Below, in pieces: positions 2,660 to 51,754 of a stretch of DNA of 64,000 nt. The notes below the pieces were generated by a model. The model did not search any database. It had not been told where the DNA came from and worked only from the letters and a program-made list of their open reading frames with translations. The position numbers and the translations under genes were made by a program. The stretch lies in NCBI GenBank assembly GCA_965222035.1, contig OZ244940.1, positions 899,015 through 963,014 of the forward strand, written 5' to 3'. Position 1 is the stretch's first letter. Every line of letters begins with the position of its first letter. The DNA comes from Candidatus Amphirhobacter sp. GTDB taxonomy: Bacteria; Pseudomonadota; Gammaproteobacteria; Tethybacterales; Tethybacteraceae.

Positions 2660-2977
2660 ATGAGCAAACACTACGCATGGGTGCTGGAAGTGCGCCCCGG
2701 CTACGAAGAGGAGTACAAAAAGCGCCACGACGAGATCTGGCCGGAGATGACTGCGGCGCTCAAGGAAGCCGGCATCAGCAACTACTCGATCTTCCGCCAC
2801 GGCCTGACGCTGTTCGGCTACTTCGAGACCGACGACCTCGACGCCACCATCAAGGCGCTCGGCGCCAGCGACGCCAACCGCCGCTGGGGCGAGGCCATGG
2901 CCCCGATCATGAAGATCGACATCGACACCCGGCGCAACTTCCCCTTCCTGCTGCCGCTGCAGTGGCACATGGACTAG
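2660..2977 (+). CDS. rhaM: L-rhamnose mutarotase (RhaM/YiiL family)
   Basis: 105 aa, MSKHYAWVLEVRPGYEEEYKKRHDEIWPE... matches the RhaM/YiiL mutarotase family closely. Confidence 0.8.
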   Translation: MSKHYAWVLEVRPGYEEEYKKRHDEIWPEMTAALKEAGISNYSIFRHGLTLFGYFETDDLDATIKALGASDANRRWGEAMAPIMKIDIDTRRNFPFLLPLQWHMD

Positions 2978-2981
2978 GGCC

Positions 2982-4109
2982 ATGCGCGTCGCAAGCGTCA
3001 AGGCCCACATCGTACGCTATCCGGAGCCCAACGACCACAACAACGAGCGCATGACCGTCCTGGTCGCGGTCGAGGACGGCGACGGCGCCTGCGGCTGGGG
3101 CGAGGCCATCGCCATGTGGCCGGAAGCCTGCCACGCGGTCGCGACCGTCGTCAATGAAGGCCTCGCGCCGGTGGTTGCCGGCGGCGATCCGCGCGACATC
3201 GAAGGACACTGGCAGCGCATGCGCGCCCACAGCTGGTGGTACGGCGAGGGCGGCATCGCCTCGATGGCGCTGTCCGCCGTCGACATGGCGCTGTGGGACC
3301 TCAAGGGCAAGCTGCTCGGCGAACCGCTGTGGCGCCTGCTCGGCGGCCGCAGCCACGAGCGCCTGCCGGCATGCTCATGCCTGCACGTCAACAAGGAGAC
3401 CATCGAGGAGAACGTCGCTGAGATCGCCGGCCACATCGAGAACGGCTTTCGCGCGACCAAGCTCGGCTTCGGCAAGAAGGGCAAGTCCCGCGTCGGCGGC
3501 GATCCGGACTACGACGTCGAGTTCGTCCGCCAGGTGCGCGAAGCCATCGGCCCGCAGACGCCGCTGTATATCGATGTCGGCAACGGCGTCAAGTGGAGCA
3601 CCGGGACCGCGCTGTACGCCGCGCGCCGCATGGAGGAGATCGGCATCGACTGGATCGAGGAGCCGCTGTATCCCACCAACTGGGACGGCTACCGCGAGCT
3701 CAAGCGCCAGCTGCGGGTCCCCATCGCCTCCGGCGAGCGCGAGTTCACGGTGACCGGCTATGAGCGCCTGCTCGCGACCGGCGCCATCGACGTCTTCGGC
3801 ATCGATCCCGGCCGGGCCGAGGGCATCACCGGCTTCGTGCGCGCCGCAAGGCTGATCGAGGCCGCCGGCCGCATCGTCAACGCCCACGCCTGGAGCACCG
3901 CCATCACCTCTGCTGCATCATTGGCGCTGTCGGTGCACTGTCCCAACGCCATCGTCTTCGAGCTCAAGCCGCAGCCGAGCCCGATGCAGCACGAGCTGGT
4001 CGAAGAGCCGATCTGGCACAACGACGGCTGGGTCGCGCCGAACGACGAGCCCGGCCTGGGGCTCGAGCCCAAGCGCGCGGTGATCGAGAAGTACCTGGTC
4101 GGTACCTAG
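2982..4109 (+). CDS. enolase-superfamily (mandelate racemase/muconate lactonizing enzyme family) sugar-acid dehydratase
   Basis: 375 aa MR/MLE N- and C-terminal domains (KxK, metal ligands D/E/D region); likely L-rhamnonate/L-fuconate-type dehydratase given adjacent rhaM; stop TAG 4107-4109. Confidence 0.8.
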   Translation: MRVASVKAHIVRYPEPNDHNNERMTVLVAVEDGDGACGWGEAIAMWPEACHAVATVVNEGLAPVVAGGDPRDIEGHWQRMRAHSWWYGEGGIASMALSAVDMALWDLKGKLLGEPLWRLLGGRSHERLPACSCLHVNKETIEENVAEIAGHIENGFRATKLGFGKKGKSRVGGDPDYDVEFVRQVREAIGPQTPLYIDVGNGVKWSTGTALYAARRMEEIGIDWIEEPLYPTNWDGYRELKRQLRVPIASGEREFTVTGYERLLATGAIDVFGIDPGRAEGITGFVRAARLIEAAGRIVNAHAWSTAITSAASLALSVHCPNAIVFELKPQPSPMQHELVEEPIWHNDGWVAPNDEPGLGLEPKRAVIEKYLVGT

Positions 4110-5253: not shown

Positions 5254-6287
5254 TTCTTATCCTTGAAGCCTGCCCCAATCACAGCATCTCGGATATGTCT
5301 CATGCGCAGGTGGCGGCAGTGATTCGTGGAACGTGATGAGAGAGCCATCCAGTTCGTTTTTCGCAAAGCAGCCAATACCTTTCTTTTCTGTTTTTTTATG
5401 ACGATTCCGTATCCCGATCCATATTTGACATCATCGAATTTAAAGACAATCTGGGGCGGATGGTTGTCGTAAAAGGAACTAGTGATGAAGCAATCATATT
5501 CATGCATGTGATCAAGGCCGCAGCGCCGATCCGGTGCGGTACATACGGTCCGTATATGAATAAAGCTATCGCAGGTATCCGGCCGCAAAGCCGCAGGTAC
5601 TTCCCGCGCGCCCCACACCTGGAAAACCGTGCAGATATCCCTATCTTGCTCGCCCACATAAAACGAGTTCGGTTCTAGCTCCATGGAGTGGAGTAGATTG
5701 AGGTTCTTGACTCGCGTCATCGCTCCGCCCTTGCCGTCGCTAGCGAAAGTCATCGGCAGAATGAAGCCTACTAGCTCAGCGAAGCGGCCGGCTCGGTTGA
5801 GGAACTCTAGCGCAAGAGCGCCGCGTATACCGAAGGGCGGGTTGCCTATGACGGCATAGGCCCCTTTTTTACGTGGTGACCACTTGAGGAAATCAGCCTG
5901 CTTAATACCTTTGCCTTGCGGGTCTATGTCGAGCGCGATACGGCGATTTGACGGCAGCAGCTCGGTGAAACAGCCTTCGCCAGCGCTGGGCTCGACGAAG
6001 ATGTGCCGATTCAGGTTGTAGCCGTGTTTCCGCGCTACTTCCTTGAACACCGCATAGCACTGGCTAGCTACCGCTTTATGGGTGAACCATTTATCACCCG
6101 GGTCCTTCTTGTTGATGGCGTACCACGGTGGTTCGCTACGGGGAATGGCCCCGCCCGCAAAAACCATCGCGTTTCCGATGGGTACTAATACCCCGGTGGG
6201 GTGAAGACCTGGCAGGAAGTCAGCGGATGCCATGCAACCGTTCTTCCTTCTGCTAACCCCTGGATTCCATTGCTCTAATTTTAGCAT
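5250..6287 (-). CDS. DNA methyltransferase, gamma-class (N6-adenine or N4-cytosine), NPPF motif
   Basis: Motif I VEPSAGEGCF followed by motif IV GNPPFG; order I then IV = gamma class; alternative start at 6233 (MASADF...) has better RBS AGAAGGAAG. Confidence 0.75.
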   Translation of the reverse strand: MLKLEQWNPGVSRRKNGCMASADFLPGLHPTGVLVPIGNAMVFAGGAIPRSEPPWYAINKKDPGDKWFTHKAVASQCYAVFKEVARKHGYNLNRHIFVEPSAGEGCFTELLPSNRRIALDIDPQGKGIKQADFLKWSPRKKGAYAVIGNPPFGIRGALALEFLNRAGRFAELVGFILPMTFASDGKGGAMTRVKNLNLLHSMELEPNSFYVGEQDRDICTVFQVWGAREVPAALRPDTCDSFIHIRTVCTAPDRRCGLDHMHEYDCFITSSFYDNHPPQIVFKFDDVKYGSGYGIVIKKQKRKVLAALRKTNWMALSSRSTNHCRHLRMRHIRDAVIGAGFKDKK

Positions 6288-6318
6288 GAATCATCGTCCT
6301 CGAAACCGGCAGTATGCT

Positions 6319-6394
6319 AACGACGAGCCCGGCCTGGGGCTCGAGCCCAAGCGCGCGGTGATCGAAAAGTACCTGGTCGGACCCTAGGCCGGCG
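6319..6394. repeat. 76-bp direct repeat, copy 2 (right boundary of insert)
   Basis: Near-identical to 4041-4116; contains overlapping convergent stops CTAG (6384-6387) of the ancestral arrangement. Confidence 0.85.
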
Positions 6395-7502
6395 CGCGGC
6401 GGGCCGCATCCTGCAGCGAAGCGCCGATGGCCGTGCGCCGCGGCTCGAACATCTTTTTCAGCCGCAGGCTGTTGCCCATGCTGTCATGGGCCTCGAGGTC
6501 GCAATCGACGCAGTCGAAGACCGTGAAGTCCGCGCGCGTACCCGTCTGCGCCGCGGCGTCCAGGCCGAGGAAGGCGCGCGGGCGCGCGGCCACCGCCGCG
6601 ACGCATTCATCGAAGGGCAGCCCGACCGCATGCAGCTTGGCCATGGTCGTCGCCATGTCATAGACCGGACCGTCGATGTTCTCGCGGTGCAGGTCAGTCG
6701 AGATCGAATAGGGCCGCAGGCCGTCGGCGAGCGCGCGCTTGGCCGTGTCGAAATGGAACGAGGCCGCGCCGTGGCCCACGTCCATCAAAATGCCGCGCTC
6801 GGCCGCCTGCTTGGCCAAGGCAAACACGCCGGGCGCGTCGGTCAAGGAGCCGGCCGGCTTGCCGTTGAAGCAGTGGGTGATCACGTCGCCGGGCTCGAGG
6901 ATCTCGAGCACCTCGTCGGGAATGGGAGGCGGCTCGCCGATGTGCGCCATCAGCGGCAGGCCCGCCATCTGGGCGACGCGCTTGGCCACCCGTACCGGAC
7001 CGGCGCCCCACGAACCGACGATGACGCCGCTGGCGCGGATCTTGACCCCGCAGACCACATCGCGGTTCTTCTCGATCACCTCTAGGGTACGACCCACATC
7101 GATGAAGCGGGCGTCGAGCAGTTCGGGGATGCGGTTGCAGCACACCAAACCGATCGAGGAGATGTTGACGAAGGCGCGCATGGTCTCGGCGCCCTCCTCG
7201 AGGACGTACTCGCGCAGGCCGTGGAAACTGCCCTCGCCGGCGCTGCCGGCGTCGGCCATGGCGGTCACGCCGGTGGCGCGGCCGGCGTCCTTGGCGCGGA
7301 CCGAGATGTCGGTGCCGCCGTGCCAGACATGCACGTGCAGGTCGGTCCAGCCCGGCGACAGCCAGCTGCCGCCGCAGTCGATGTCCTCGGCGCCGTCAGC
7401 CGGCCGCGCGGCGATCAGACCGTCGGCGTCGACATGGATGACATCACCTGGATCCTGCGCGAAGCCCGCAGGCTGGAAGTTGCGCAGGCTGTAGGCGCTC
7501 AC
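6384..7502 (-). CDS. amidohydrolase-superfamily protein (NagA/dihydroorotase-like metal-dependent hydrolase)
   Basis: HVHVW HxH motif near N-terminus, C-terminal ...RADFTVFD segment like NagA/DHOase-type amidohydrolases; 372 aa. Confidence 0.7.
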   Translation of the reverse strand: MSAYSLRNFQPAGFAQDPGDVIHVDADGLIAARPADGAEDIDCGGSWLSPGWTDLHVHVWHGGTDISVRAKDAGRATGVTAMADAGSAGEGSFHGLREYVLEEGAETMRAFVNISSIGLVCCNRIPELLDARFIDVGRTLEVIEKNRDVVCGVKIRASGVIVGSWGAGPVRVAKRVAQMAGLPLMAHIGEPPPIPDEVLEILEPGDVITHCFNGKPAGSLTDAPGVFALAKQAAERGILMDVGHGAASFHFDTAKRALADGLRPYSISTDLHRENIDGPVYDMATTMAKLHAVGLPFDECVAAVAARPRAFLGLDAAAQTGTRADFTVFDCVDCDLEAHDSMGNSLRLKKMFEPRRTAIGASLQDAARRAPA

Positions 7503-8499: not shown

Positions 8500-9284
8500 C
8501 GGACCGGCAGCTCGAAGACCAGCACATCTTGGTGACCGGCGCGGCCGGCGGCATCGGCCAGGCGCTGTGCGCCGAGCTCGCCGCGCGCGGCGCGAGGGTG
8601 GCCGCGCTCGACCGCGACCAGCGCGGGCTCGAACGCCTGGCCAAGCAGCAGCACGGCCTTGAGCTCCTGCGCGCCGACCTGACTCAAGAACGCATGCTGG
8701 CGCGGAAGCTGGCCGCGCACGCCAAGCGCCACGGAGCGTTCGACGGCTTGGTGAGCAACGCCGCGGTCTTTTGCGACGTGCCCACCTTGGCGCGCACCAC
8801 TCCGGCGAGCTGGCAGCAGGAGATCGACGGCAACCTAACCGCCGCCTTCAACGTCGCCCGGGCGCTGCTGCCCGCGTGCCGGCGGAAGAAGCGCGGCAGC
8901 CTGGTCTTCATCGCCTCGGTCAACGCCCTGTCCTTCCTCGGGCATCCAGCCTACAGCGTCGCCAAGGCGGCGGTCGTCAGCTACGCCGGCGCGATCGCGG
9001 TCGAATACGGCAAGCACAACATCCGCAGCAACGTGCTGCTGCCGGGTACGGTGGCGACGCCGGCCTGGCGCAAGCGCCTGCGGCGCAATCCCAAGCTGCT
9101 CGAGCAGCTGCGCAAGTGGTACCCGCTCGGACGGGTGGTCGAACCCAATGAGGTCGCGCGCGCCGCATGCTTTTTGCTGTCGGATGACGCCGCCGCCGTC
9201 AGCGGCGCATGCCTCACCGTCGACTGCGGGCTGAGCGCCGGCATCAAGCCGATGGCGTCCGAGCTCACGCAGGCCGAGTTTTGA
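8496..9284 (+). CDS. SDR-family oxidoreductase
   Basis: MTDRQLEDQHILVTGAAGGIGQALC... TGxxxGxG, NAA, YSVAK (YxxxK); ATGA overlap with upstream gene; the track ORF 7947..9284 is an over-extension. Confidence 0.8.
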   Translation: MTDRQLEDQHILVTGAAGGIGQALCAELAARGARVAALDRDQRGLERLAKQQHGLELLRADLTQERMLARKLAAHAKRHGAFDGLVSNAAVFCDVPTLARTTPASWQQEIDGNLTAAFNVARALLPACRRKKRGSLVFIASVNALSFLGHPAYSVAKAAVVSYAGAIAVEYGKHNIRSNVLLPGTVATPAWRKRLRRNPKLLEQLRKWYPLGRVVEPNEVARAACFLLSDDAAAVSGACLTVDCGLSAGIKPMASELTQAEF

Positions 9285-46029: not shown

Positions 46030-47526
46030 TTATTCATCGCCCTGCGCGGCATATGCGAGGGCGGCCTGGACGGCTCGGCTCCACCGCTCCAGGCGCTGCG
46101 CGCGGACCTCGGCGGCCAGCGCCGGGGTGAAGCTGCTCCCCTCGACGCGCAGCTTGCCCATCTCCGCCATGGAGCCGTATTCCCCGGCCTGCAGCCCGGC
46201 CAGGAAAGCCGCTCCCGCCGCGGTGGTCTCGATGTGGCTCGGCCGGCTGACCTCCTGGTCGAGCACGTCGGCCAGGTACTGCGCGAACCAGTCGTTCGCA
46301 GCCATGCCGCCGTCGATGCGCACCGCCTGCGGCGCCAGGCCCTCGGCGCGATAGGCCTCGAGCAGGTCGTGGCTTTGATAGGCGACCGACGCCAGCGTCG
46401 CATGCGCGAGCGTCGCGCGGTCAGTGTCCAGCGTCATGCCGACGATGGTCCCGCGCGCCGCCGGGTTCCAATGCGGAGCGCCCAGGCCGGTGAAGGCGGG
46501 TACCAGGTACACCTGCGCATCGGCCGGGGCCTGGGCCGCGAGCTCGGCGGTCGCGGCGGCATTGTCGATGACGCCGATCTTGTCGCGCAGCCACTGGACC
46601 GCGGCGCCGGCGATGAAGATCGAGCCCTCGACCGCATAGGCGCTGCGGCCGCCCACCCGGTAGCCGACGGTCCCCAGCAGCCCGCTGCCCGGAATCAGGG
46701 GCTCGGCCCCGCCTTGGACGATGACGAAGCAGCCGGTCCCGTAGGTCGACTTGGCCTCGCCCGGCTCGAGGCAGTTCTGGCCGATGGCGGCCGCCTGCTG
46801 GTCGCCGGCGATGCCGCCGATCGGGATGCGCAGGTCGCCGATCTCGGCGACGCCGTAGTCGGAGGCGTTGTCCTTGACCTCGGGCAGGCAGGCGCGCGGG
46901 ACGCCATGCAGCTTGAGCAGCTCGTCATCCCATGCCATGCTCGCGAGGTCGAGCAACTGGGTGCGGCTGGCGTTGGTGACGTCAGAGGCGAAGACTTTGC
47001 CGCCGGTGAGCATCCACACCAAGTAGGCGTCGATGGTTCCGGCGAGGACCTTGCCCTGCTCGGCTTGCTCCATGGAGTTGGTCTCACGCAGCAGCCAGGC
47101 GATCTTGGTCGCGGAGAAATACGGGTCGAGCACCAGGCCGGTCTTGCGCCGCACCAGCTCCAGGGCGCCGTCGCGCTCGAGCTCGGCGCAGCGGTCCGCG
47201 GTGCGACGGTCCTGCCAGACGATCGCGCGGTGCAGCGGCTTGCCGGTCTCCTTATCCCACAGCAGCACGGTCTCGCGCTGGTTGGTGATGCCGAGGGCGA
47301 CGGCCTGGCCGCCTTGGGCCGTACAGTAATCAGCGGCCTCGCGCAGCACCCGCTGGGCATCGCGCCAGATGTCGGTGGCGTCGTGCTCGACCCAGCCCTC
47401 CTGCGGATAATGCTGCGGGAGTTCGTAGCGACTGATGTGCTCCGGCGCGAGCGTGTCGGCGGCGAAGGCGATGGCCCGGGTGCTGGTCGTGCCCTGGTCG
47501 AGCGCGATGATGTATTTCTTGCCCAT
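46030..47526 (-). CDS. glpK: glycerol kinase
   Basis: FGGY kinase family, N-terminal YIIALDQGTTSTRA, 498 aa. Confidence 0.9.
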   Translation of the reverse strand: MGKKYIIALDQGTTSTRAIAFAADTLAPEHISRYELPQHYPQEGWVEHDATDIWRDAQRVLREAADYCTAQGGQAVALGITNQRETVLLWDKETGKPLHRAIVWQDRRTADRCAELERDGALELVRRKTGLVLDPYFSATKIAWLLRETNSMEQAEQGKVLAGTIDAYLVWMLTGGKVFASDVTNASRTQLLDLASMAWDDELLKLHGVPRACLPEVKDNASDYGVAEIGDLRIPIGGIAGDQQAAAIGQNCLEPGEAKSTYGTGCFVIVQGGAEPLIPGSGLLGTVGYRVGGRSAYAVEGSIFIAGAAVQWLRDKIGVIDNAAATAELAAQAPADAQVYLVPAFTGLGAPHWNPAARGTIVGMTLDTDRATLAHATLASVAYQSHDLLEAYRAEGLAPQAVRIDGGMAANDWFAQYLADVLDQEVSRPSHIETTAAGAAFLAGLQAGEYGSMAEMGKLRVEGSSFTPALAAEVRAQRLERWSRAVQAALAYAAQGDE

Positions 47527-47594
47527 CCGGATGCTATTTTACGCTGTGCTCCCTTGCGGGGTAGGCAGGCCTCAAAGTCCGCATGGCAGAGGGC

Positions 47595-47622
47595 TTGTTT
47601 TGCTGAAAAAGAGGACTATATA
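47595..47622 (+). promoter_or_regulatory. sigma70-like promoter TTGTTT-N16-TATATA for glycine-rich peptide gene 1
   Basis: 68-nt leader identical to that at 48092-48119. Confidence 0.45.
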
Positions 47623-47657
47623 ACTGGGTAAGCATTCACTCGTAAGGAGAAATGACC

Positions 47658-47969
47658 ATGAACAAACCAACCATATCCAACACACACGGCGGCGGCGACC
47701 CCGGCTGGCCTTCCAAGACTGGGGAAGAGAGCGGAGGCGGCAGGAAAAACGCTGTCCGCCGCAAGCCACTCCTGGCCAAGGGCAAAGGCGGCGGCAGAGG
47801 TGGCGGCCGTCCTCACAACGGGCCTTCCACAACCGGACGGCCGAGCGGCAAGGGCCGAGGCAACAACCCGCCGGGCGGCGGTGGCGGCGGCAAAAGCGGT
47901 CCCAACTGGCCTTCCACAACCGGGAATCCGAGCGGCAAAGGCAGGGACAACAACCCGCCGAGCAAGTAG
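47658..47969 (+). CDS. glycine/proline-rich basic small protein with three N[WY]PS[KT]TG.PSGKGR.N.PP repeats
   Basis: RBS AAGGAGA 8 nt before ATG at 47658 (the track start 47652 sits only 1 nt from the SD); followed by strong terminator. Confidence 0.55.
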   Translation: MNKPTISNTHGGGDPGWPSKTGEESGGGRKNAVRRKPLLAKGKGGGRGGGRPHNGPSTTGRPSGKGRGNNPPGGGGGGKSGPNWPSTTGNPSGKGRDNNPPSK

Positions 47970-47995
47970 CTCTGCGCTAACTGCGCAGGCTCTGG

Positions 47996-48034
47996 CCGGA
48001 GACCGGGAATGCCCGGTCTCCGGTTTCGCTGTTT
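47996..48034 (+). terminator. rho-independent terminator (12-bp perfect stem ccggagaccggg/cccggtctccgg, loop aatg, T-tract)
   Basis: Palindrome and downstream tttcgctgttt read directly. Confidence 0.75.
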
Positions 48035-48091
48035 AAGTACCTAGCCTCCTTGCGCGGGACGCAGGCTGCAGGGCCCGCAAGACAGAGGGGC

Positions 48092-48119
48092 TTGTTTTGC
48101 TGAAAAAGAGGACTATATA
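48092..48119 (+). promoter_or_regulatory. duplicate promoter TTGTTT-N16-TATATA for peptide gene 2
   Basis: Identical to 47595-47622. Confidence 0.45.
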
Positions 48120-48154
48120 ACTGGGTAAGCATTCACTCGTAAGGAGAAATGATT

Positions 48155-48304
48155 ATGATCAAGCTGATTTTGCCTAACCTGCGCGACGACGACGAGGAGG
48201 AGGAGGAGTACTACTACTTCGACGACGACGACGACGAGAATCCCAACTACCCTTCCACGACCGGGAATCCGAGCGGGGGAGGCAGGGGCAACACGCCGAA
48301 GTAA
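48155..48304 (+). CDS. 49-aa peptide: hydrophobic N-terminus, poly-acidic D/E/Y stretch, C-terminal NYPSTTGNPSGGGRGNTPK motif
   Basis: Same RBS/leader as gene 1; shares the PSTTGNPSG.GRGN motif; below the ORF-track cutoff. Confidence 0.45.
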   Translation: MIKLILPNLRDDDEEEEEYYYFDDDDDENPNYPSTTGNPSGGGRGNTPK

Positions 48305-48333
48305 CAGCCCTGCGCTAGCTGCGCAGACGCTGG

Positions 48334-48372
48334 CCGGAGACCGGGAATGCCCGGTCTCCGGTTTCGCTGTTT
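48334..48372 (+). terminator. rho-independent terminator, identical hairpin to 47996-48034; abuts the 3' end of trpB2 (convergent, possibly bidirectional)
   Basis: Same 12-bp stem; T-tract 48362-48372; trpB2 stop at 48380. Confidence 0.75.
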
Positions 48373-48379
48373 AATCCGC

Positions 48380-49747
48380 CTAGGCCTCGACCGGCGGCAG
48401 GCCCTCAAGCGCCTTGGCCATGGCCGCCGGATCGGCGGCCTCGTTGCTGAGCGAGCCTGAGGCGTAGTCCATGTACGCCTGCATGTCGAAATGGCCATGG
48501 CCGCAGAGATTGAACAAGATCGTCTGGGACTTGCCCTCCTTCTTGCAGCGCTCGGCCTCCTCCAGCACGCAAGCGACCGCATGGTTGGCCTCCGGCGCCG
48601 GCAGAATGCCCTCGGCGCGCGCGAAGATCGCACCCGCCTCAAAACAGCGCAGCTGCTTGTACGACCGCGCCGCGATGCGCTCTTCCGCCACCAATTGACT
48701 CACCAGCGGCGCCATGCCGTGGTACCGCAAGCCGCCCGCATGAAAACCCGGCGGGACAAAACCCGCGCCCAGCGTATGCATCTTCACTAGCGGCGTCATC
48801 TGACCCGTGTCGCCGAAGTCGTAGGCGTACTTGCCGCGCGTCAAGGTCGGACAGTTGTCCGGCTCCGCCGCGATGAACTCGCAGTCGATCTCGCCGCGCA
48901 GCTTCGCCCCCAGGAAGGGAAATGCCAGGCCCGCGAAGTTGCTGCCGCCGCCGGTGCAGCCGATCACCAAGTCCGGCTGCGCGTCCGCCAGGCGCAGCTG
49001 CGCCATCGCTTCTTGGCCCACCACCGTCTGATGCAGCAAGACATGATTGAGCACGCTGCCCAGCGCATACTTGGTGTCGTCGCTGCTCGCCGCGCGCTCG
49101 ACCGCCTCGGAGATCGCGATCCCCAAGCTGCCGGTGCAGTCCGGATCGTCCGCCAGGATCTTGCGGCCCGCGTTGGTCTGGTCCGAAGGACTCGCGATGC
49201 AAGTCGCGCCGAAGGACTCCATGAAAGCCCGCCGATAGGGCTTCTGCCCGTAACTGACCTTCACCATGTACACCTCGACCTCCAGCCCGAACAACGAACC
49301 CGCCAGCGCCAGCGACGAGCCCCACTGGCCCGCGCCGGTCTCCGTCGTCAGGCGCTTGACGCCCTCCTCCTTGGCGTAATACGCCTGCGCGATCGCCGTG
49401 TTCGGCTTGTGGCTGCCCGCCGGGCTCACGCCCTCGTACTTGTAGAAGATCTTCGCCGGCGTGTCCAGCGCCTGCTCCAGCCGCCGCGCGCGATACAGCG
49501 GCGACGGGCGCCACTGCCGGTAGATCTCACGCACCGGCTCCGGAATCGGGACCTCGCGGTCCTGGCTGACCTCCTGCATGATGATCGCCATCGGGAACAA
49601 CGGCGCCAGGTCGTCCGGGCCCACCGGGTCCATGCGCCCCGGATGGATGACCGGCGGCGGCTTGACCGGCATGTCGGCCACGATGTTGTACCAGTGGCTC
49701 GGCAGCTGGTCCTCCGCTAGCAGGTATTTGACTTGTTCTTCGCTCAT
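48380..49747 (-). CDS. trpB: tryptophan synthase beta chain-like protein, TrpB2 type
   Basis: PLP-dependent TrpB fold with long N-terminal extension typical of TrpB2 (about 455 aa); start MSEEQVKYLL at 49747 preferred over the track start. Confidence 0.8.
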   Translation of the reverse strand: MSEEQVKYLLAEDQLPSHWYNIVADMPVKPPPVIHPGRMDPVGPDDLAPLFPMAIIMQEVSQDREVPIPEPVREIYRQWRPSPLYRARRLEQALDTPAKIFYKYEGVSPAGSHKPNTAIAQAYYAKEEGVKRLTTETGAGQWGSSLALAGSLFGLEVEVYMVKVSYGQKPYRRAFMESFGATCIASPSDQTNAGRKILADDPDCTGSLGIAISEAVERAASSDDTKYALGSVLNHVLLHQTVVGQEAMAQLRLADAQPDLVIGCTGGGSNFAGLAFPFLGAKLRGEIDCEFIAAEPDNCPTLTRGKYAYDFGDTGQMTPLVKMHTLGAGFVPPGFHAGGLRYHGMAPLVSQLVAEERIAARSYKQLRCFEAGAIFARAEGILPAPEANHAVACVLEEAERCKKEGKSQTILFNLCGHGHFDMQAYMDYASGSLSNEAADPAAMAKALEGLPPVEA

Positions 49748-49814
49748 GATATGGATCTCCCTCTGTAGATGTGTCCTTGTCCTCGCGCCCTTGCTCACGC
49801 CGCCGGGCCAGCGG

Positions 49815-49887
49815 TGCTGCAGGAGGGACTCGAACCCCCGACCTGCTATTTACGAAACAGCTGCTCTACCAGCTGAGCTACTGCAGC
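49815..49887 (-). tRNA. tRNA-Thr (anticodon CGT)
   Basis: GCTGCAGTAGCTCAGCTGGTAGAGCAGCTGTTTCGTAAATAGC..GGTTCGAGTCC..CTGCAGCA; acceptor stem 7/7 paired. Confidence 0.8.
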
Positions 49888-49916: not shown

Positions 49917-50780
49917 CTAGTGCATGCTCATGTAGACGCCGCGCCGCCGCCGCGCCGTCAATACCACCATGACCACCGCCAGCGCCAGCGTGGTCAATAG
50001 CAGCGCGGAGATGTCGCCGGTCCCATCCGCCAGCGCATGCCCCAGGTGCACCCGCCAGATCGAGGCGAAGACGCCATGCTGGTACCACGCCAGGGCCTCC
50101 AGGACCGGATTGTCCGTGACCGCCGCCGTTTCAATCCGCTCCAGCACGACCAGCAACGCCATCAACACCCACCACACCCACGGCCGCAGCAGCAGCGCGC
50201 AGAACGCCAGGACCGAAGCCAAGCCCAGGCTGACCGTGAAGATCAAGGCGCCGCGGCCGATCATGCCCAGCCAGTCCCGCAGGTTGGCTACGACGATCGT
50301 GGCGAAGCCCTTGTCGCCGAAGATGAAGTACTCGAAGACCGAGAACAGCAGCCCGTAAACCAGCAGCGGCAGCGCCGCCAGCACGAAGAACACCAGCGCG
50401 CCCAGCATCTGGCCGACGAGCCACATGCTGTCCGCCACCGGCATGTTGTGCCAGAACAGAATGCTGCGGTCCTTCATGTTGTAATGGTCCATGCATGCGC
50501 AGCTGTAGAAGACGATGCCTCCGAACACAAACAGATAGAAGAAGTGGAAGTACGTCAGATGCACCGCCGGATACTGCGCCAGGGAACCCCCGAACAACAG
50601 TTTGTACGGCGCGCCCCGCGGCTCAAAGCCGAAAAAGCACAAGAGCAGGAACAACACCCCGGCCACGACGAGGATGATGGCCGCATAACGCAGCCGCCAC
50701 AGCAAGGTGGTGAGCGTGATGAGCAGGACCGCCTGCAGCTGGACGCGGATGCTGTGGAAAACTCCCGTCATCTGCGCCAC
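49917..50780 (-). CDS. ABC-2-type-like polytopic membrane protein (putative permease partner)
   Basis: 6-7 TM, overlaps upstream ATPase-like gene stop; family assignment tentative. Confidence 0.45.
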   Translation of the reverse strand: MAQMTGVFHSIRVQLQAVLLITLTTLLWRLRYAAIILVVAGVLFLLLCFFGFEPRGAPYKLLFGGSLAQYPAVHLTYFHFFYLFVFGGIVFYSCACMDHYNMKDRSILFWHNMPVADSMWLVGQMLGALVFFVLAALPLLVYGLLFSVFEYFIFGDKGFATIVVANLRDWLGMIGRGALIFTVSLGLASVLAFCALLLRPWVWWVLMALLVVLERIETAAVTDNPVLEALAWYQHGVFASIWRVHLGHALADGTGDISALLLTTLALAVVMVVLTARRRRGVYMSMH

Positions 50781-51754
50781 CTACCCGCTAGGCGGGCGGG
50801 GGGGGGGGTGCGGGAGACTCCTTTGCTCGATGCCTGCGTGAACAACTGGGAGAACAGGCTCATGGTGGCCGGGCGCATGTTCATCCCCGTTTCCTGCAGC
50901 TCCTCTGCGGAGTGCTGGCGCTTGTCGAACAGCATGTGCGACCGCTGGGAGCCGCCGCCGCTGGTGTAGAGCGGCTTCAGGGTCGAAGCATCAAGCGCCA
51001 TGGCGCCGCCCCCTTCGAGAATGACATAATGCTCGGTCAGGTCTTCCCGGGACTCGTACAGGACCTTGCGGCCCTGCTCCAGCACCAGCACATGGGTCAG
51101 CACGCTCTCGATGTCATGCAGCCGCTCGGGCACGATGATCGCGCTGTTGCCCAGCTCCATGTAATGCTTGAGGTCCTGGGTGTTGAATTTATGGAGGTAC
51201 TCCCGCTCGGGCGGCGGCGCGAGCTCGTCGAGGATGATCAGATGCGTGTTCGAAGCCAGGGTCATCACCATCCGCAGATAGGACATCTGGCTCTCGGACA
51301 ATTCAGACAGGTGATGGTCGACGTCGATGTCGTGGGATTCCAGCACATACAGGAAATAATCGCGGTTGAACCGCGGATAGAACTGCTTCATCACCAATGC
51401 GAGAAAGCGTGGCGACGACCACGCCGGCCGCGAAGACAGCGAGGTGATGACCGATGCGTCCCGCGCCACCAGGTGCCGCTCGGTCCAGGGATTGCGGCCC
51501 GCCAGCGACAGGTAGCTGCCGCGCGCCGGCTTGAGATCGCCGCGCAGCAGGTGGCAGAACGTGGTCCGGCCCGATCCTTGCCGGCCCATCAACGCCACCA
51601 TCGAGCCCTGCTCGATCTCGAGGTTGATGTCGTGCAAGTCGTATTCGTTGTCGCTGCCATGGTGCTTGAAACTCAAATGCTTGGCGCTCAGCAGCGGCAG
51701 ATGCTCGAGCTGCAAAGCAGGCATCTTCTCTTGGCGGTATTCCAGGACGCTCAT
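50768..51754 (-). CDS. ABC-transporter ATPase-like protein with degenerate motifs
   Basis: Walker [10 protein letters not shown] (K->R), signature LSESQ, Walker B LIILDE, H-loop position lacks His; ATGA-coupled to gltD stop; the track N-terminal 101 aa over-extension is rejected. Confidence 0.6.

Follow-up and report, generated by a model that had tools for sequence, protein, structure and literature searches.

A peptide module of ~21 residues, [N/G]-[W/x]-PS[T/K]TG[N/K]PSG[G/K]GR[G/D]NNPP[K/R/S]K, is shared by two small genes of Candidatus Amphirhobacter sp. and, judged from sequence comparison, defines a very large, undescribed and horizontally spread family of proteins. The two genes, referred to by their open reading frames (ORFs) as ORF1 and ORF2, lie between glpK and a trpB2-like gene in a stretch of 64,000 nucleotides (nt) of contig OZ244940.1 (GCA_965222035.1), which is called the window throughout. 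That both are real genes of a new family is very probable. A preliminary description of the locus had given product sizes of 103 and 49 amino acids (aa), a shared motif with one copy in ORF2, and no known family, and all of these observations have held. The module represents a new sequence family, although in physical terms it may be a hydrophilin variant.

A short module shared across phyla

An initial search with ORF1 returned small 'hypothetical' proteins that had the motif alone in common, and protein searching also supplied the ORF1 homologues P0001-P0003. The tblastn and hidden Markov model (HMM) searches suggested in the preliminary description uncovered a huge cross-domain family linked to mobile elements. 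A 23-residue motif alignment run against one genome per GTDB species gave more than 273 tblastn-confirmed loci. The proteobacterial and Campylobacterales loci include Psychrobacter, Acinetobacter, many Campylobacter and other Campylobacterales, Cupriavidus, Chromobacterium and Marinomonas; the others fall in Myxococcota, Planctomycetota, Chloroflexi/Dehalococcoidia, Bacteroidota, Verrucomicrobiota and one metagenome-assembled genome (MAG) labelled Bathyarchaeia. The same alignment matched 30 loci in IMG/VR viral contigs. A profile search of a collection of 5.8 billion proteins yielded at least 2526 proteins at E<=1 among 8000 scored candidates, with no Pfam domain in any of the 120 proteins listed, and an exhaustive HMM search of 1.84 billion representatives at 50% identity produced 586 clusters at E<=1e-3. 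The exact Acinetobacter peptide was found by tblastn in 56 PLSDB plasmid records. The counts from GTDB and from word-indexed searches are lower bounds. The exact ORF1 and ORF2 products are missing from the protein collection, and the gene index contains neither ORF1 nor the glpK product.

By six-frame extraction, the carriers are for the most part ORFs of 25-60 aa, and mostly unannotated. Typically a short or Gly/Lys/Ser-rich N-terminal part is followed by the motif and a stop codon, as in MAKSGVRPPNGPSTTGNPSGKGRGNNPPKK and MSKAGWPSTTGNPSGGGRDNNPPRK. The 224 unique carriers have a median length of 50 aa; the motif is present once in 196, twice in 25 and three times in 3, and in 57% its start is 19-20 residues away from the C-terminus. 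In this set R11 and N13 never vary, although the search pattern left both free. The 20-residue peptide is 80-95% identical between phyla, a range that spans Campylobacter, Acinetobacter, myxobacteria, Chloroflexi, Bacteroidales, archaea-labelled MAGs, phage contigs and a giant-virus fragment (L104), and its amino acids are conserved from 30% GC in that fragment to 65% GC in the window. Positions -2 and 12 covary (N with G; G with D or S), which may reflect residue contacts or simply subfamily descent. ORF2 belongs to an 'NPNYPS...GRGNTPK' subtype that recurs in distant taxa.

Near-exact across phyla, the peptide is yet missing from every curated library searched. Pfam and NCBIfam hold no family for ORF1 or ORF2 even at E<=10, and Pfam, NCBIfam, PHROGs and PADLOC gave nothing for the two products, for typical family peptides or for recurrent neighbours, a single PHROG match (E=0.027) being at chance level. 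A sequence-profile search of the PDB with the motif returned 0 matches at E<=10, and the motif strings are absent from a full-text literature search; a keyword search likewise found nothing relevant. Consensus peptides of 24-28 aa had no tblastn match among INPHARED phages, a generic-consensus peptide matched no plasmid, unlike the exact Acinetobacter peptide, and blastn found no match in complete genomes of E. coli. Pseudomonas phage phiPSA1, found via a neighbouring endolysin, has no annotated small ORF beside the endolysin gene. Likenesses to the sortase LPXTG signal, Trp-cage, PilZ (NxSxxG), AT-hook and the L27 N-terminus were rejected, as the spacing or key residues misfit or the aromatic position is often G, A or K.

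The archaeal assignment comes from MAG labels alone, and the neighbours at the Bathyarchaeia-labelled locus (L014) include no clearly archaeal marker. An HSP20 gene (8529-9200) lies ~2.5 kb from the peptide ORF at this locus, and a ParE-type toxin gene (6163-6414) is adjacent to it.

Two adjacent units in Amphirhobacter

The order glpK - ORF1 - ORF2 - trpB2 is identical in three metagenome-assembly loci (L001, L114 and L115), and both ORFs are intact in all of them. Every indel within the ORFs is a multiple of 3, and ORF2 has in-frame length changes within its acidic run. Among the orthologues, the motif half of ORF1 (repeats 2-3) has 16 synonymous and 5 non-synonymous codon differences, and the N-terminal half 19 and 20. 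Both ORFs are considered real coding genes because they are intact in the orthologues, their indels are in frame and the changes in the motif region are mostly synonymous. The in-frame ATGs 5' of the ORF starts, at 47652 and 48149, are too near the ribosome-binding site (RBS); the 103-aa start of ORF1 is favoured because the ATG equivalent to 47652 is missing in L001. Three repeats had been described in ORF1. Two of these are good motif copies, but the first (GWPSKTGEESGGGRKNAVRRKP) is degenerate.

Features of the two cassettes, in window coordinates
Feature	Coordinates	Strand	Description
Promoter/leader, cassette 1	47591..47657	+	TTGTTT 47595-47600, 16-nt spacer, TATATA 47617-47622 (alternatively TATAAC 47619-47624), AAGGAG 47644-47649
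ORF1	47658..47969	+	103 aa; degenerate motif copy ~47700-47765, good copies 47814-47879 and 47901-47966
3' end, cassette 1	47972..48036	+	small hairpin 47972-47988, 12-14-bp GC-rich hairpin 47994-48025, then TTTCGCTGTTTAA
Inter-cassette spacer	48037..48087	+	diverged copy of the region 5' of cassette 1, from two-unit alignment
Promoter/leader, cassette 2	48088..48154	+	TTGTTT 48092-48097, TATATA 48114-48119, AAGGAG 48141-48146
ORF2	48155..48304	+	49 aa; MIKLILPNLR, acidic/aromatic patch DDDEEEEEYYYFDDDDDE 48185-48238, one motif copy NPNYPSTTGNPSGGGRGNTPK 48242-48301
3' end, cassette 2	48310..48374	+	small hairpin 48310-48326, GC-rich hairpin 48332-48363, then TTTCGCTGTTTAA

The two tandem units reported earlier, each with a promoter-like leader, an ORF and a hairpin 3' end, are present in the window. 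The identical leader with TTGTTT-N16-TATATA and AAGGAG also stands, but its exact identity covers 65 nt (47591-47655 versus 48088-48152) and not ~68 nt. A 63-nt leader core has 2 exact matches in the window against 0 expected by chance, and in diverged form the duplicated stretch reaches ~50 nt further 5'. The -35/-10-like core (TTGTTT-N16-TATATA or N18-TATAAC) is kept in 8 of 8 copies at the four orthologous loci, window included. AAGGAG lies 8 nt 5' of each ATG, and RNA folding indicates that the translation-start regions of both ORFs are unstructured. Both leaders are putative promoters, and each cassette is apparently its own transcription unit. A consensus promoter scan made no call on either TTGTTT-TATATA leader because it demands a T at position 6 of the -10 element. 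Its sole promoter-like call, TTCACT-16-TATGAT at 48132-48159 (+), overlaps the RBS and start of ORF2 and probably arose by chance. The C just 5' of the -10 element presumably recalls sigma-S promoters. A sigma-54 or sigma-32 promoter was rejected, as the bases required differ between the two cassettes.

Both 3' ends carry the small hairpin CTGCGC-5 nt-GCGCAG followed by a large hairpin with a perfect 12-bp stem (CCGGAGACCGGG / CCCGGTCTCCGG) and the loop AATG, in agreement with the identical 12-bp stem first described. Folding energies are -44.6 kcal/mol (z -7.05) for the 3' region of cassette 1 and -45.6 kcal/mol (z -6.82) for that of cassette 2, relative to shuffles, and the orthologues preserve stem pairing by way of G-U changes. 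The second putative terminator, as had been noted, abuts the stop codon of the convergent trpB2-like gene, ending at 48374 next to 48380-48382. A terminator scan called neither 3' end on the plus strand; the tail TTTCGCTGTTT is interrupted and the scan looks for at least 5 T in 8, which explains the missing calls. Both 3' ends are candidate terminators. Since the small hairpin of cassette 2 scored as terminator-like on the minus strand, this element may end transcription in both directions. Rfam searches of the region (E<=1) and of the whole window returned just two tRNAs and sub-threshold matches to sX12 and P17 on the hairpins, far under the gathering scores. A riboswitch or small RNA was rejected, with no Rfam family at threshold.

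The units arose through tandem duplication of one promoter-ORF-terminator unit. In L114, the spacer (~2770-3060) contains ~117 extra nt that copy glpK-proximal upstream sequence, which shows that the entire unit was duplicated in tandem. The cassettes are a clade-specific gain, made in one clade of an uncultured gammaproteobacterium: around trpB2, to ~4 kb on either side, the nearest outgroups (TrpB2 identities of 82% and 77%) lack any motif ORF. A gene of the metallo-beta-lactamase fold occupies the trpB2-glpK gap in one outgroup (L126). The best named matches of TrpB2, at 73-76% identity, are labelled 'Gammaproteobacteria bacterium' and 'Acidiferrobacteraceae bacterium'.

The two head-to-tail units are enclosed by glpK (46030-47526, -) and the gene of the trpB2-like pyridoxal phosphate enzyme (48380-49798, -). 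Other genes near the cassettes encode a fructose-bisphosphate aldolase, an acyl-CoA synthetase-type protein, tRNA-Thr, an ABC ATPase and an unknown membrane protein, and no prophage, integrase or transposase is evident beside the cassettes. The tRNA-Thr(CGT) gene (49813-49887, -) is directly upstream of the trpB2-like gene, with no integrase close by; tRNA genes are frequent integration sites. Genes for a 286-aa membrane-like protein without a Pfam match (49917-50777, -) and a 322-aa ABC ATPase (50768-51736, -) adjoin the trpB2-like gene. This pair is present in L001, L114 and L115, and missing at this position in the outgroups L126 and L127.

Carrier proteins and genomic company

Besides occurring in free-standing peptides, the motif ends or begins unrelated larger proteins. 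In L103 (38-406) and L104 (5659-6051), a Gly/Lys linker joins the motif to the LRLRGG end of a eukaryote-type ubiquitin (PF00240, 1e-31). Both contigs are AT-rich, and L104, at 30% GC, is regarded as a giant-virus fragment because it carries a Pox_A22 resolvase of the poxvirus type, ankyrin repeats and a patatin gene. In L124 (3001-3396; GCA_002206065.1, Bacteroidales-type), GroES is in frame with the motif and groEL begins 8 nt downstream; DUF1661 genes near this locus suggest a Porphyromonas-like organism. A Bacteroidales MAG has a separate 30-aa motif ORF between groES and groEL (L029, 5650-5742). The N-terminus of the L057 carrier is an SMP/LEA-D34 module (PF04927) of the late embryogenesis abundant (LEA) type, scoring 24.6 bits against a cut-off of 22; that of L047 matches it below the Pfam cut-off, and that of P0113 is alike by eye only. 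For P0009, which has no Pfam match, a beta-grasp likeness was likewise seen by eye only. Acinetobacter encodes paralogous 146-aa carriers. A 94-aa protein with a helical N-terminus and a terminal motif is found on the Salmonella plasmid pF18S023-2364 (L129, 1212-1496), which has 2364 bp and two annotated genes, the other being NinE-like, and on a Citrobacter freundii IncFIB plasmid (L132, 2279-2563), where it adjoins relBE and hok.

About 20 of the larger proteins (~125-212 aa) consist of a globular part followed by a linker, an acidic patch (DDxDDD and the like) and a terminal NPNWPS[K/T]TGNPSGGGRGNNPPRR. By this comparison, ORF2 appears to represent the smallest version of a recurrent 'acidic patch + motif' tail. 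AlphaFold2 modelled one such carrier of ~200 aa (P0245) with pLDDT (the predicted local distance difference test) of 97 as two alpha-beta-beta-alpha-beta units, with a disordered tail of pLDDT ~50. Foldseek listed the dual-BON proteins OsmY, BonA and DolP first (probability 0.97-0.99), at a template modelling (TM) score of just 0.24-0.30, and also KH and ring-building motifs. Three metagenomic proteins (P0190, P0195 and P0216) begin with an N-terminus like an organelle transit peptide, continue with GRGQGDAGGWPSTTGNPSGGGRSNNPP and end in a ~150-aa unknown domain. They may be eukaryotic, judging by this arrangement. Their 'RGQGN.GGW' subtype is also present in marine phage, giant-virus and Euryarchaeota-labelled sequences.

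The two window products are opposite in charge. ORF1 is basic (pI 11.8, net charge ~+14) with 29% Gly and a grand average of hydropathy (GRAVY) of -1.52; ORF2 is acidic (pI 4.05, net charge ~-10) with 10% Gly and GRAVY -1.57. Both have the composition of hydrophilins (Gly above ~6%, hydrophilicity index >1 or GRAVY <-1). Hydrophilins, a concept also treated elsewhere (PMC13232832), are reported from all kingdoms and protect enzymes on drying (PMC13552118). In the functional sense, the term denotes proteins that build up during water deficit or stress and guard enzymes or cells against drying. Among 268 small carriers (<=80 aa), 92% have a pI >9 and 79% a GRAVY <-1. AlphaFold2, with a 40-sequence alignment, gave ORF2 a pLDDT of 59 and no secondary structure. 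ORF1 and ORF2 are predicted to be cytoplasmic, disordered proteins.

Simple ORF rules were used to call the neighbours of the family genes. BLAST clustering and HMM searches of the flanking ORFs revealed no universal neighbour, and the partners are lineage-specific. The family genes mostly stand alone: at 45 of 79 loci the next gene downstream is convergent, and RNA structure in the 50 nt 3' of the stop codon exceeds that of random windows (p=6e-5). A gene for an NYN-domain RNase adjoins the peptide in Campylobacter, in a Competibacteraceae MAG and in a Dehalococcoidia MAG. Campylobacterales and several marine gammaproteobacteria have a divergent ~120-aa helical protein and a ~130-aa Cys-containing protein. 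In Moraxellaceae the partner is an unknown, convergently encoded protein of 360-400 aa, and type I restriction genes are often close by. On T4-like viral contigs the motif gene sits between gp32 and a RecA/UvsX-like gene; other viral contigs have a GH19 endolysin neighbour. A tyrosine integrase, Fic and a DEAD helicase are encoded near BON-like carriers.

Plasmids add further copies. An identical 28-aa ORF, MKTMSTAGWPSTTGNPSGGGRDNNPPRK, is present on 22 Acinetobacter plasmids with no annotated feature there; the hosts, clinical and animal, include A. baumannii, A. pittii (pOXA58-AP_882), A. nosocomialis, A. soli, A. towneri and others. On the carbapenemase plasmid pOXA58-AP_882 (L117, 4061-4147, -; NZ_CP014479.1), it comes directly after an annotated N/Q-rich ORF of 41 aa, and a hypothetical gene of 357 aa is convergent to it. 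An unannotated 50-aa member is present on a ColRNAI plasmid of 5 kb from Enterobacter hormaechei.

Possible roles and comparison with known systems

The module is probably a portable disordered tail, and presumably the working part of the proteins that carry it. A role in stress protection or proteostasis, of the hydrophilin type, is the tentative first choice, favoured because of the hydrophilin composition and the fusions to GroES, an LEA-type module, OsmY-like folds and ubiquitin. The module would act as a flexible hydrophilic tail, alone or on a carrier domain, and might, like hydrophilins and LEA proteins, keep other macromolecules shielded or in solution, or help chaperone-type carriers. 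ORF1 would be a three-copy polycationic version of it, and the acidic/aromatic run of ORF2 would probably mask or tune the basic module, or pair with ORF1. Disordered stress proteins were also the best of the three options in the preliminary description, given the composition, the AlphaFold2 disorder and the SMP/LEA, GroES and OsmY-like fusions.

Several observations, however, weigh against stress protection. Neither ORF1 nor ORF2 matches the LEA group 1 (PF00477), KGG or SMP (PF04927) models. The near-exact conservation (80-95% over 20 residues between phyla) is tighter than a generic shield or water replacement needs and argues for a specific ligand. The strong link to mobile elements (small ColE1-type and large plasmids, phage contigs, a giant virus, integrase islands) is unusual for hydrophilins, and the recurrent neighbours include several proteins that act on nucleic acids (NYN RNase, found in three unrelated lineages, gp32 and RecA/UvsX in T4-like contigs, helicases, restriction-modification). 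Further, the GroES, SMP and BON-like links each come from few lineages. The BON likeness exists at the fold level only, at the low TM scores given above and with KH and ring-building motifs matched too; the ~200-aa carriers concerned have no Pfam BON (PF04972) match and no signal peptide.

The main alternative, possible if doubtful, sees in the module a short linear motif for binding a single universal and probably anionic target, for instance RNA, DNA, the ribosome or an enzyme acting on them, and spread by mobile elements whose tiny proteins would manipulate or protect a host process. The acidic run of ORF2 would then be a built-in mask or a nucleic-acid mimic. Such a target would fit near-exact conservation across bacteria, archaea-labelled MAGs, phage contigs and the giant-virus fragment, although the archaeal part depends on MAG labels. 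The pI >9 of most small carriers points the same way, but ORF2 and the ~200-aa carriers are acidic overall, and the motif has one invariant Arg only and no known nucleic-acid-binding signature. The company it keeps is also in favour: NYN RNase adjacency in Campylobacter, Competibacteraceae and Dehalococcoidia, the position between gp32 and the RecA/UvsX-like gene in T4-like contigs, and carriers on plasmids (2.4-kb and 5-kb ones included) and on islands with integrase, Fic or helicase genes. However, no neighbour is universal, and no PDB sequence resembles the motif. The covariation of positions -2 and 12 also counts for this reading, but could reflect subfamily descent. The ubiquitin fusion, finally, resembles eukaryotic ubiquitin-ribosomal-protein fusions. 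In its boldest form, which is unlikely as it stands, the module would be a universal ligand docking on a machine or molecule of all cells (ribosome, chaperonin or nucleic acid) and traded by plasmids, phages and giant viruses. Few microprotein families would then be as widely distributed, and this one would have escaped notice because gene callers and curated libraries pass over ORFs of 25-60 aa, the size of most copies.

It is improbable that ORF1 and ORF2 form a charge-complementary pair, in which one product neutralises, chaperones or co-condenses with the other in an antidote- or coacervate-like fashion. Their opposite pI values (11.8 versus 4.05) would suit such a pair, as would the retention of both genes in 4 of 4 orthologous loci, window included, and the acidic patch directly before the basic motif in many larger carriers. 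However, most family members are single and lack an acidic partner gene, and the pairing is known from one clade only. Neither product has a toxin-like feature or a PADLOC or Pfam toxin-antitoxin match.

The preliminary description had also offered secreted or processed peptides and precursors of ribosomally synthesised and post-translationally modified peptides (RiPPs). Such peptides, microcin-like or otherwise secreted, with the repeated motifs as cores, are very unlikely here. The repeated copies in ORF1 do resemble multi-core precursors, and the ABC ATPase and uncharacterised membrane protein are encoded 1.5 kb away in all cassette-bearing orthologues. However, a hydrophobic run of >=12 residues, as in a signal peptide or membrane helix, occurs in 0 of the 268 small carriers; no Sec/Tat signal peptide or double-glycine leader was found, and the ORF2 N-terminus (MIKLILPNLR) is too short to be one. 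Across ~110 loci, including 141 immediate neighbours in ~80 non-redundant loci, no recurrent maturase, protease or exporter appeared, whether of the radical-SAM, YcaO, lanthipeptide or C39-exporter kind. The N-terminal part is variable and the C-terminal 20 residues near-invariant, the reverse of the conserved leader and variable core of RiPPs, and this would-be 'core' also ends GroES, ubiquitin and BON-like proteins. Moreover, carriers reside in housekeeping operons and on tiny plasmids without space for maturases.

Equally little probability attaches to regulatory leader or ribosome-arrest peptides, which would regulate a downstream gene through contact of their conserved C-terminal 20 residues with the exit tunnel. 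The motif is approximately of exit-tunnel length and C-terminal, ends in NNPP-x-K-stop after an N-terminal part of variable length, and the ribosome would be a universal partner; a close co-directional gene is also present at some loci (groEL in L029, NYN in Campylobacter, the 146-aa paralogues in Acinetobacter). Such a gene lies on the same strand within 100 nt at 11 of 79 loci only, however, and the window ORFs precede strong hairpins and then a new promoter or a convergent gene. Moreover, one ORF can contain 2-3 motif copies, and some larger proteins begin with the motif. A non-coding repeated DNA or RNA element, with the ORFs as chance frames, is effectively refuted: GC-rich DNA does yield many spurious ORFs and the hairpins have weak sub-threshold Rfam matches, but the amino-acid motif is conserved across taxa and from 30% to 65% GC, differences in the motif region of the orthologues are mostly synonymous, all indels are in frame, a strong RBS stands at the optimal distance from each start, and no Rfam family reaches threshold.

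What the family means depends on its role. Should the module bind one universal target, mobile elements would have in it a new tool to use on their hosts, and it could serve as a ready-made affinity tag for this target. As a stress protectant, it would represent a new and very compact class of hydrophilin, with a bearing on desiccation and persistence. In addition, the peptide is carried without annotation on clinical and animal Acinetobacter plasmids, the pOXA58 carbapenemase plasmid included, and on small enterobacterial plasmids.

Among known systems, multi-core RiPP precursors and class II microcins share with the family small ORFs with repeated conserved peptide units. They differ in that the family has no leader or signal, maturase, dedicated exporter or variable core. 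Phage 'moron' cassettes are promoter-ORF-terminator units added to a genome. The window units are similar, each with an AT-rich promoter-like leader, a small ORF and a hairpin 3' end, and also in having no counterpart near trpB2 in the nearest outgroups and relatives that are common on mobile elements; however, the window pair sits between chromosomal housekeeping genes. In the ubiquitin-ribosomal protein fusions eL40 and eS31, the likeness is to L103 and L104: cleavage of the fusion in these two would free a small basic peptide resembling the bacterial stand-alone proteins. The released peptide, however, would be without eL40/eS31 similarity or a zinc ribbon, and the link to the ribosome is putative.

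Closest in physical character are hydrophilins and LEA repeats (the LEA group 1 20-mer PF00477, KGG proteins YciG/GsiB, SMP/LEA-D34 PF04927, and DtpA/DtpB of A. baumannii), which are similarly small, Gly-rich, hydrophilic and disordered. They also have a hydrophilic motif of ~20 residues in one to several tandem copies, spread across the domains of life, and the SMP module itself is present on some family members. In contrast, the motif of the family is far stricter, usually single and C-terminal, and found largely on plasmids, phages and islands. Portable C-terminal peptide tails on unrelated proteins are also known, namely the acidic tip of the single-stranded DNA-binding protein (SSB) and the cargo-loading peptides of encapsulins. 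The family is comparable in that a disordered peptide follows a flexible linker on GroES, ubiquitin, BON-like, helical plasmid and 146-aa Acinetobacter proteins, and the acidic/aromatic run of ORF2 is reminiscent of SSB-type tips. No encapsulin or other receptor gene is a conserved neighbour of the carriers, and the sequences are unrelated to those of the known tails; further, the family tail differs from these in being abundant as a free-standing gene of 25-60 aa as well.

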